DNA of 43,616 bases from the NCBI RefSeq assembly GCF_003334305.1, contig NZ_QOWS01000029.1. One strand, given 5' to 3'. This document shows, piece by piece, positions 5,586-6,986 of this stretch (positions are counted from its first letter, which is position 1; every line of letters begins with the position of its first letter). Below the pieces are notes generated by a model. The model had not been told where the DNA came from. It worked only from the letters and a program-made list of their open reading frames with translations, and searched no databases. The position numbers and the translations under genes were made by a program. The stretch comes from Escherichia coli. Its GTDB lineage: Bacteria; Pseudomonadota; Gammaproteobacteria; Enterobacterales; Enterobacteriaceae.

Positions 5586-6986
5586 ATGCCACATTCCTAC
5601 GATTACGATGCCATAGTAATAGGTTCCGGCCCCGGCGGCGAAGGCGCTGCAATGGGCCTGGTTAAGCAAGGTGCGCGCGTCGCAGTTATCGAGCGTTATC
5701 AAAATGTTGGCGGCGGTTGCACCCACTGGGGCACCATCCCGTCGAAAGCTCTCCGTCACGCCGTCAGCCGCATTATAGAATTCAATCAAAACCCACTTTA
5801 CAGCGACCATTCCCGACTGCTCCGCTCTTCTTTTGCCGATATCCTTAACCATGCCGATAACGTGATTAATCAACAAACGCGCATGCGTCAGGGATTTTAC
5901 GAACGTAATCACTGTGAAATATTGCAGGGAAACGCTCGCTTTGTTGACGAGCATACGTTGGCGCTGGATTGCCCGGACGGCAGCGTTGAAACACTAACCG
6001 CTGAAAAATTTGTTATTGCCTGCGGCTCTCGTCCATATCATCCAACAGATGTTGATTTCACCCATCCACGCATTTACGACAGCGACTCAATTCTTAGCAT
6101 GCACCACGAACCGCGCCATGTACTTATCTATGGTGCTGGAGTGATCGGCTGTGAATATGCGTCGATCTTCCGCGGTATGGATGTAAAAGTGGATCTGATC
6201 AACACCCGCGATCGCCTGCTGGCATTTCTCGATCAAGAGATGTCAGATTCTCTCTCCTATCACTTCTGGAACAGTGGCGTAGTGATTCGTCACAACGAAG
6301 AGTACGAGAAGATCGAAGGCTGTGACGACGGTGTGATCATGCATCTGAAGTCGGGTAAAAAACTGAAAGCTGACTGCCTGCTCTATGCCAACGGTCGTAC
6401 CGGTAATACCGATTCGCTGGCGTTACAGAACATTGGGCTGGAAACTGACAGTCGCGGACAGCTGAAGGTCAACAGCATGTATCAGACCGCACAGCCGCAC
6501 GTTTACGCGGTGGGCGACGTGATTGGTTATCCGAGCCTGGCATCAGCGGCCTATGACCAGGGGCGCATTGCCGCGCAGGCGCTGGTAAAAGGCGAAGCCA
6601 CCGCGCATCTGATTGAAGATATCCCTACCGGCATTTACACCATCCCGGAAATCAGCTCTGTGGGCAAAACCGAACAGCAGCTGACCGCGATGAAAGTGCC
6701 ATATGAAGTGGGCCGCGCCCAGTTTAAACATCTGGCACGCGCACAAATCGTCGGCATGAACGTGGGCACGCTGAAAATTTTGTTCCATCGGGAAACAAAA
6801 GAGATTCTGGGTATTCACTGCTTTGGCGAGCGCGCTGCCGAAATTATTCATATCGGTCAGGCGATTATGGAACAGAAAGGTGGCGGCAACACTATTGAGT
6901 ACTTCGTCAACACCACCTTTAACTACCCGACCATGGCGGAAGCCTATCGGGTAGCTGCGTTAAACGGTTTAAACCGCCTGTTTTAA
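5586..6986 (+). CDS. sthA: Soluble pyridine nucleotide transhydrogenase
   Basis: 466-aa ORF with FAD-binding GSGPGG and NAD-binding GAGVIG dinucleotide-fold motifs; recognised as SthA/UdhA. Confidence 0.93.

Follow-up and report, generated by a model that had tools for sequence, protein, structure and literature searches.

Overlaps between the coding sequences of convergent genes have been modelled as the product of 3′ extension, the frame of one gene running on to the next stop codon (the model of Kingsford et al. 2007, as it is cited in PMC3887535). In common with such pairs, the sthA and oxyR genes of Escherichia coli are real protein genes that share their last codons and, where the oxyR stop codon is lost, OxyR runs on to the next one. 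The sthA-oxyR overlap differs in that its length does not drift, being kept at 18 bp across several families, and in that a codon constraint is visible. As to the formation of 3′ ends, Dar and Sorek (2018; PMC6061677) located Rho-dependent E. coli ends just past stable stem-loops that have no U tract and that shield the transcripts from PNPase and RNase II. The ends of the sthA and oxyR mRNAs resemble these, since they are precise, lie 4-5 nt past stable stem-loops and are accompanied by read-through that is sensitive to bicyclomycin. The lack of a U tract is shared by the sthA hairpin (UCUGCC follows the stem), whereas the oxyR stem is followed by UUUCUGUU. The two cases also differ in that the sthA and oxyR stem-loops sit within the coding sequence of the opposite gene, and hence are dually constrained, and in that the role of exonucleases at this locus is one that we infer.

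Overlapping bidirectional terminators form another class serving convergent E. coli genes (Ju et al. 2019 and Wang et al., as described in bioRxiv 10.1101/2022.10.23.513370). In the terms of that description, sthA/oxyR is similar in being a convergent pair with overlapping 3′ ends that follow stem-loops unlike those of intrinsic terminators, but its two separate hairpins, with ends 162 nt apart, and its Rho-sensitive read-through set it outside the type of Ju et al. 2019 as portrayed there. Convergent overlaps have, in addition, been catalogued as excludons. ExcludonFinder (NAR 2025, PMC12288877) explicitly lists oxyR-sthA among 165 convergent overlaps found in at least 50% of 58 MG1655 transcriptomes; unlike an excludon in the full sense, the pair is documented by transcript overlap only, and the mutually exclusive expression that defines the class would be putative here. 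The E. coli pair mscL-arfA, which is regulated via a convergent 3′ overlap and RNase III (PMC10070815), similarly consists of convergent neighbours with complementary 3′ regions in an enterobacterial stress-response context. Unlike at sthA-oxyR, regulation and the role of RNase III have been experimentally tested for mscL-arfA, whilst at sthA-oxyR the coding sequences themselves overlap.

The window analysed here is a stretch of 43,616 nucleotides from an E. coli genome (contig NZ_QOWS01000029.1), collinear with strain A28 to about 42.8 kb, in which the two genes are arranged as follows.

5586..6986, plus strand: sthA coding sequence (soluble pyridine nucleotide transhydrogenase, 466 aa), from the ORF list and RefSeq, 100% identical to E. 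coli SthA.
6969..7886, minus strand: oxyR coding sequence (305 aa), from RefSeq; the mechanical ORF is 6969..7916, reaching an upstream ATG at 7916.
6969..6986, both strands: 18-bp stretch common to the sthA and oxyR coding sequences, TTAAACCGCCTGTTTTAA.

The original prediction, that the convergent sthA and oxyR genes overlap by 18 bp at their 3′ ends, is confirmed by the sequence, the ORF list, RefSeq and the K-12 MG1655 reference annotation, where the overlap is also 18 bp (oxyR 4158490..4159407, sthA complement(4159390..4160790)). The two frames are in codon register within this stretch, such that the TTA codon of SthA Leu462, read antisense, is the oxyR stop TAA, and an oxyR Leu TTA, read antisense, is the sthA stop TAA; each stop codon lies inside the ORF of its opposite-strand partner (sthA at 6986, oxyR at 6969). 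The 2.8-kb sthA-oxyR region is matched at ≥95% identity by all 5426 of the 5426 complete E. coli genomes. Both ORFs are real, conserved protein genes, with identities of 91-100% for SthA and 92-100% for OxyR among the orthologues of 80 species, and in other families the neighbouring genes carry the Pfam domains Pyr_redox_2/Pyr_redox_dim and HTH_1/LysR_substrate.

The arrangement extends well beyond E. coli. In a survey of the Enterobacteriaceae with one genome per species (80 loci, 79 with both genes), the overlap is 18 bp long in 77 of the 79 species and 27 bp in the other two, Enterobacter soli and Pluralibacter gergoviae. In these two species Leu462 is encoded by CTG and OxyR is extended by three codons (9 nt) to the following stop, giving the 27-bp overlap. 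Outside this family, in a comparison that spans the Enterobacterales and for which the protein search listed matches of at least 82% identity, 18-bp overlaps occur in Erwinia, Pantoea, Hafnia, Edwardsiella, Serratia, Brenneria (represented by Brenneria corticis) and Prodigiosinella; other lengths are found in Pectobacterium (43 bp) and Musicola (9 bp), and Dickeya has no overlap, the genes being separated by a 116-bp AT-rich spacer. Judging from these genomes, the tail-to-tail arrangement is ancestral to several families of the Enterobacterales. Its imprint on the codons is marked. Leu462 of SthA is encoded in 77 of 80 species by TTA or CTA, the only two Leu codons whose reverse complement is a stop codon; at the 24 other invariant SthA Leu positions, TTA makes up 3% of the codons. 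Within the overlap the third codon positions of sthA are the first positions of oxyR; the SthA tail, NGLNRLF, is invariant and the substitutions fall in the OxyR tail (V/I, A/T, Q/K/E). On stop loss the overlap behaves as the random-extension model predicts, and a function beyond the mutual constraint on stops and codons is not needed.

The 3′ ends of both mRNAs have been mapped in MG1655 by Term-seq and RNAtag-seq (PMC7815308, PMC10687069). Transfer of the K-12 coordinates to the window was checked; within 6860..7046 the two sequences differ at just three positions, all of which lie outside the stems.

7031 (K-12 4159345, minus strand there), plus strand: sthA mRNA 3′ end (Adams et al. 2021 Supplementary file 1; TRS paper Supplementary Data 2).
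6870..6872 (K-12 4159504-4159506, plus strand there), minus strand: oxyR mRNA 3′ end (TRS paper Supplementary Data 2, two datasets, and Supplementary Data 4).
6870..7031, both strands: stretch that, going by the mapped 3′ ends, both mature mRNAs contain, perfectly complementary over about 162 nt.

The sthA end lies 45 nt beyond the stop codon, 63 nt into oxyR and 5 nt after a hairpin. Adams et al. 2021 (eLife, PMC7815308) report it as a dominant 3′ end at K-12 4159345(-) of the class 'primary sthA, antisense oxyR', with about 78,000 and 55,000 reads on two of three condition tabs, comparable to OxyS. The TRS paper (Nat Commun 2023, PMC10687069) gives the same sthA end as Adams et al. and a primary 3′ end for oxyR with a 100-nt 3′ UTR; on the window the oxyR end falls in the sequence CCACCUUUCUGUU, 4-6 nt after its distal hairpin, with a 3′ UTR of about 100 nt. 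The transcripts of these opposite-strand neighbours consequently overlap by the 3′-end maps as well as by the ExcludonFinder listing. It had been claimed that each transcript extends antisense into the partner gene, and the published ends at 7031 and 6870-6872 bear this out; the MG1655 maps exclude that both transcripts stop before the overlap. The further claim, that no room is left for an intergenic terminator, stands as far as the absence of intergenic DNA is concerned, but signals for 3′-end formation are present as conserved hairpins inside the partner coding sequences, with Rho-sensitive regions beyond. The overlap was thus already annotated, the RNA ends already mapped and the pair already catalogued as a transcript overlap. 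The hairpins are placed as follows.

7001..7026, plus strand: sthA 3′-terminal hairpin, an inverted repeat (GGCCAUCC, 10-nt loop, GGAUGGCC) encoded within oxyR codons.
6921..6956, minus strand: proximal hairpin of the oxyR 3′ UTR, from the fold, antisense within sthA codons and, at 91% paired, the less conserved of the two.
6876..6920, minus strand: distal, 3′-terminal hairpin of the oxyR 3′ UTR, from the fold, antisense within sthA codons 431-445 and followed by UUUCUGUU.

The sthA hairpin has a GC-rich stem of 8 bp with a folding energy of -15.1 kcal/mol (fold z = -3.7). Its covariation was assessed in 80 aligned sequences, 74 of them distinct, against shuffled and slid controls. A standard pair is formed in 97.6% of cells, compared with 19-50% in the slid controls, and three pairs have compensatory changes on both sides. 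Doubly changed cells number 12, against 1.7 ± 1.1 in the shuffles, none of 500 of which reaches 12. The main event is an exchange of A-U for G-C in which a synonymous change of an OxyR Asp codon, GAT to GAC, is coupled to an Ile to Val substitution 17 nt away. This exchange is found in at least three groups (the Kluyvera group, Intestinirhabdus and the Cedecea/Dryocola group), and G-U intermediates are seen in Citrobacter amalonaticus and Franconibacter helveticus. The hairpin is missing in this register from three Pseudocitrobacter sequences and one Enterobacter sp.

The two hairpins of the 100-nt oxyR UTR together have a folding energy of -36.9 kcal/mol. For this UTR the shuffle control is uninformative, because the third positions of sthA codons always pair with first positions and no pair varies on both sides; as double changes are impossible without an amino-acid change, a test of four-fold synonymous sites was used instead. 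Across the 80 species, five of the six four-fold sthA sites in the 6876-6920 stem are free of transversions, compared with 10 of 140 other four-fold sites in sthA (Fisher p = 3.3e-5) and with 4 of 69 sites of the same codon families (GG, AC, GT) outside the stem (p = 4.2e-5). At four-fold sites in the loops all four bases occur. The distal hairpin is 99.6% paired, and all of its variants are A/G opposite an invariant U. Selection of this helix on the plus strand of sthA was also considered and rejected: pairing is 98.8% on the minus-strand RNA versus 84% on the plus strand, where the T/C variants are C·A mismatches in place of the A-U or G-U pairs of the minus strand. Other families have a hairpin at the same site in a shifted register (-11 to -21 kcal/mol). 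In Dickeya and Musicola, a single lineage in which the tail arrangement has changed, the hairpin is degraded (-9.4 kcal/mol) and transversions occur at otherwise fixed sites; this contrast, coming from one lineage, would lend weak support to selection on the hairpin. From these patterns of substitution both embedded hairpins look selected, that of sthA by its compensatory changes and that of oxyR by the synonymous constraint it places on sthA. What is new here is limited to this evidence for selection on both hairpins, with its cost at sthA synonymous sites.

Beyond the mapped ends, Adams et al. 2021 (PMC7815308) found that inhibition of Rho with bicyclomycin raises read-through on both strands, measured in 800-nt windows, and their Supplementary file 2 places two regions of Rho termination at the locus.

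7361 (K-12 4159015), plus strand: Rho termination region for sthA read-through, Rho score 5.8, of low positional resolution.
6867 (K-12 4159509), minus strand: Rho termination region for oxyR transcripts, Rho score 5.1, of low positional resolution.

The ratio of C to G after 7031 is 0.9-1.2 in the first 200 nt and 1.8-2.0 at 7232-7331, and in the first 100 nt past 6870 it is 1.36-1.38, so that the C-rich, G-poor, rut-like composition downstream of the two ends is modest to weak. A limit set by Rho on antisense read-through, on either strand, is one of three parts of the best-supported reading, beside the ancient tail-to-tail fusion and 3′-end determinants that are hairpins within the partner's codons under purifying selection. 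At the roughly 800-nt resolution of the Rho data, we infer that the ends at 7031 and 6870-6872 are themselves products of Rho termination.

The explanation that we prefer, and that we regard as probable when taken as a whole, combines an ancient 18-bp tail-to-tail fusion, hairpins embedded in the partner gene, and Rho termination followed by exonucleolytic trimming. According to this model, sthA and oxyR are independently transcribed, convergent genes whose 18-bp fusion dates back at least to an ancestor shared by several Enterobacterales families. The overlap as such is most likely a by-product of gene packing that has become frozen, and it persists because any change of a stop codon alters the tail of the other protein. 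As there is no spacer, the 3′-end signals of each mRNA sit in the coding sequence of the partner. Most likely, Rho terminates the untranslated antisense read-through further downstream, and 3′-to-5′ exonucleases then trim the transcripts back to the protective hairpins at 7001-7026 and 6876-6920; in the case of oxyR, weak intrinsic termination at the hairpin and UUUCUGUU may add to this. The order of events, Rho first and trimming second, would follow from this model, as would the absence of a dedicated regulatory role for the overlap. Read in this way, sthA/oxyR is a clean and deeply conserved case in which each gene encodes, in its own codons, the 3′-end hairpin of the opposite mRNA. Such double coding has a price in synonymous-site constraint and codon choice, for example a rare TTA Leu codon held as the stop of the partner. 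The pair would be a convenient test case for the formation of 3′ ends without spacers in gene-dense genomes, and for whether catalogued 'excludons' regulate anything. It also bears on recoding of the E. coli genome, where synonymous edits within the final ~120 nt of sthA or the final ~60 nt of oxyR hit the stop codon or the terminal hairpin of the partner.

An alternative, which we hold to be a tentative possibility, is that the distal oxyR hairpin and UUUCUGUU constitute a genuine, weak intrinsic terminator within the sthA coding sequence, the sthA hairpin being a non-canonical, hairpin-dependent terminator and Rho mopping up the read-through. The oxyR hairpin has a GC-rich stem (GGUGGUG/CGCCACC) followed by 6 U in 8 nt, the mapped end lies 8 nt past the last G-C pair, and in many species a change of CAG to CAA lengthens the U run to UUUUUG; with this partial U tract it may terminate transcription intrinsically in its own right. 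Another hairpin, predicted at about 7028-7055, should stop exonucleases before 7031; this speaks for direct termination or cleavage at that position and counts against trimming to it from far downstream. Against this alternative, the oxyR stem-loop contains a mismatch within its stem and a loop of 13 nt, the sthA hairpin is without any U tract (UCUGCC) and the read-through is bicyclomycin-sensitive on both strands. Neither hairpin shows the combination of a short GC-rich stem, a loop of 3-8 nt and at least 5 U that defines canonical intrinsic terminators, the loops being 10 and 13 nt. A scan for consensus promoters and terminators over 5300-8300 found only the OxyS terminator and sites at chance level, with none in 6860-7060 on either strand and hence none at either mapped end. 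An Rfam scan of 4000-10000 likewise gave OxyS only, with no known RNA family at the sthA/oxyR junction.

A further model, which we consider unlikely, is coupling of the excludon type, in which the ~162-nt complementary ends pair in vivo, or the converging polymerases interfere, such that transcription of one gene lowers expression of the other through RNase III cleavage or interference and links the peroxide regulator to NADPH re-oxidation. In its favour, both mature mRNAs span 6870..7031, oxyR-sthA belongs to the 165 convergent excludons of the ExcludonFinder list (at least 50% of 58 MG1655 transcriptomes), mscL-arfA offers an E. coli precedent for regulation by convergent 3′ overlap and RNase III (PMC10070815), and the arrangement is kept across the Enterobacterales. 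The ExcludonFinder listing, however, derives from RNA-seq coverage alone, and a literature search for RNase III, antisense, dsRNA or perturbation data on sthA-oxyR returned that catalogue only. Moreover, stable intramolecular hairpins occupy both 3′ regions and compete with intermolecular pairing. Transcription of oxyR is autorepressed and is not induced by peroxide, OxyR being activated post-translationally. It is therefore no reporter of oxidative stress and would be a poor signal to relay to sthA. The coding constraint accounts just as well for the conservation of the overlap; the long persistence of the overlap is also predicted by functional coupling, and its neutrality, as assumed in the preferred explanation, would be one reading of the same pattern. 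Regulatory coupling of sthA and oxyR is possible, and weakly motivated physiologically. A more elaborate form of the idea, which appears distinctly improbable, would make the locus a conserved module in which the codons of each gene carry the selected hairpin of the antisense partner and the ~162-nt ends set the ratio of OxyR to SthA via a duplex or interference between polymerases, so that peroxide sensing would be tied to NADPH re-oxidation throughout the Enterobacterales.

We give very little weight to a model of bidirectional termination driven by collision, in which head-on polymerases, positioned by the nascent stem-loops, set both 3′ ends, a mechanism put forward for many such gene pairs of E. 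coli. The genes are convergent, a canonical terminator is absent and a stem-loop precedes each 3′ end, as such a model would have it. However, the terminators of this kind are described in the preprint cited above as Rho-independent, whereas the sthA/oxyR read-through is bicyclomycin-sensitive; the two ends, separated by 162 nt, follow separate hairpins and share no single element, and the weak transcription of oxyR would make collisions rare. That the overlap is an artefact of annotation or sequencing, or a chance trait of one strain, has next to no probability, no point in its support having been found, and is ruled out by unambiguous stop codons, the identical geometry in K-12, the presence of the region in 5426 complete E. 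coli genomes (≥95% identity) and recurrence of the arrangement in about 85 other species. Convergent overlaps of coding sequences are not rare as such, and the finding of this one, being real, ordinary and already known, by itself adds little. Elsewhere in the window, the convergent yijO and frwD coding sequences form a second overlap, of 14 bp, at 21700..21713.

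The antisense hairpin that lies within the sthA codons, in the region equivalent to 6876..6920, is formed in another pairing register in the loci of Hafnia, Pectobacterium and Brenneria (L085, L087 and L092). In E. coli, SthA reads KGGGNT at this point and the hairpin arm is derived from the K-G-G-G codons, whilst in these three genera the protein reads KGEGNT and the arm is derived from the E-G-N-T codons. The antisense structure is thus retained despite a two-codon shift of its pairing partner between the three genera and E. coli. In Dickeya dianthicola (L084), sthA and oxyR are set apart by a 116-bp spacer (3908..4023 of that locus), which is AT-rich and made up of short repeated units that are variants of AATCAATTGTTT and TTGATTTAATCAAAAC. 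A strong hairpin is absent from this spacer, which looks like an inserted repetitive element.

In the window, on the other side of oxyR and divergent from it, lies a small RNA gene:

7982..8091, + strand, OxyS small RNA (Rfam RF00035, 139.5 bits)

The OxyS terminator, at 8072-8090, is the sole canonical terminator found near the locus by a consensus scan. Two genes, manD (D-mannonate dehydratase) and one for an MFS transporter, are located between oxyS and argH and occupy 8138..10702. As argH directly follows oxyS in the K-12 MG1655 annotation, these two genes represent a strain-variable insertion or deletion adjoining the oxyR locus.

Overlapping genes of several types are frequent in this region. 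Besides sthA and oxyR, the convergent coding sequences of yijO and frwD form a second such pair in the window, with 14 bp in common (21700..21713); the frwD-yijO pair is also contained in the ExcludonFinder list (PMC12288877). The annotated ends of this pair and the same-strand overlaps are as follows:

CDS end 21713, + strand, yijO
CDS end 21700, - strand, frwD
893..948, same-strand CDS overlap of 56 bp, murI/btuB
22887..22921, same-strand CDS overlap of 35 bp, pflC/pflD

The mechanically called ORFs of fabR and oxyR both reach upstream of the annotated starts, from a TTG at 5348 rather than 5255 for fabR (ORF 4605..5348) and from an ATG at 7916 rather than 7886 for oxyR. The annotated length of fabR is itself greater in K-12 (705 nt) than in strain A28 (651 nt). 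Collinearity of the window with the otherwise near-identical strain A28 ends at ~42803. Within 41162..43616 lie a yiiX pseudogene and an IS1 transposase, both of them frameshifted, together with the beginning of an RHS element.
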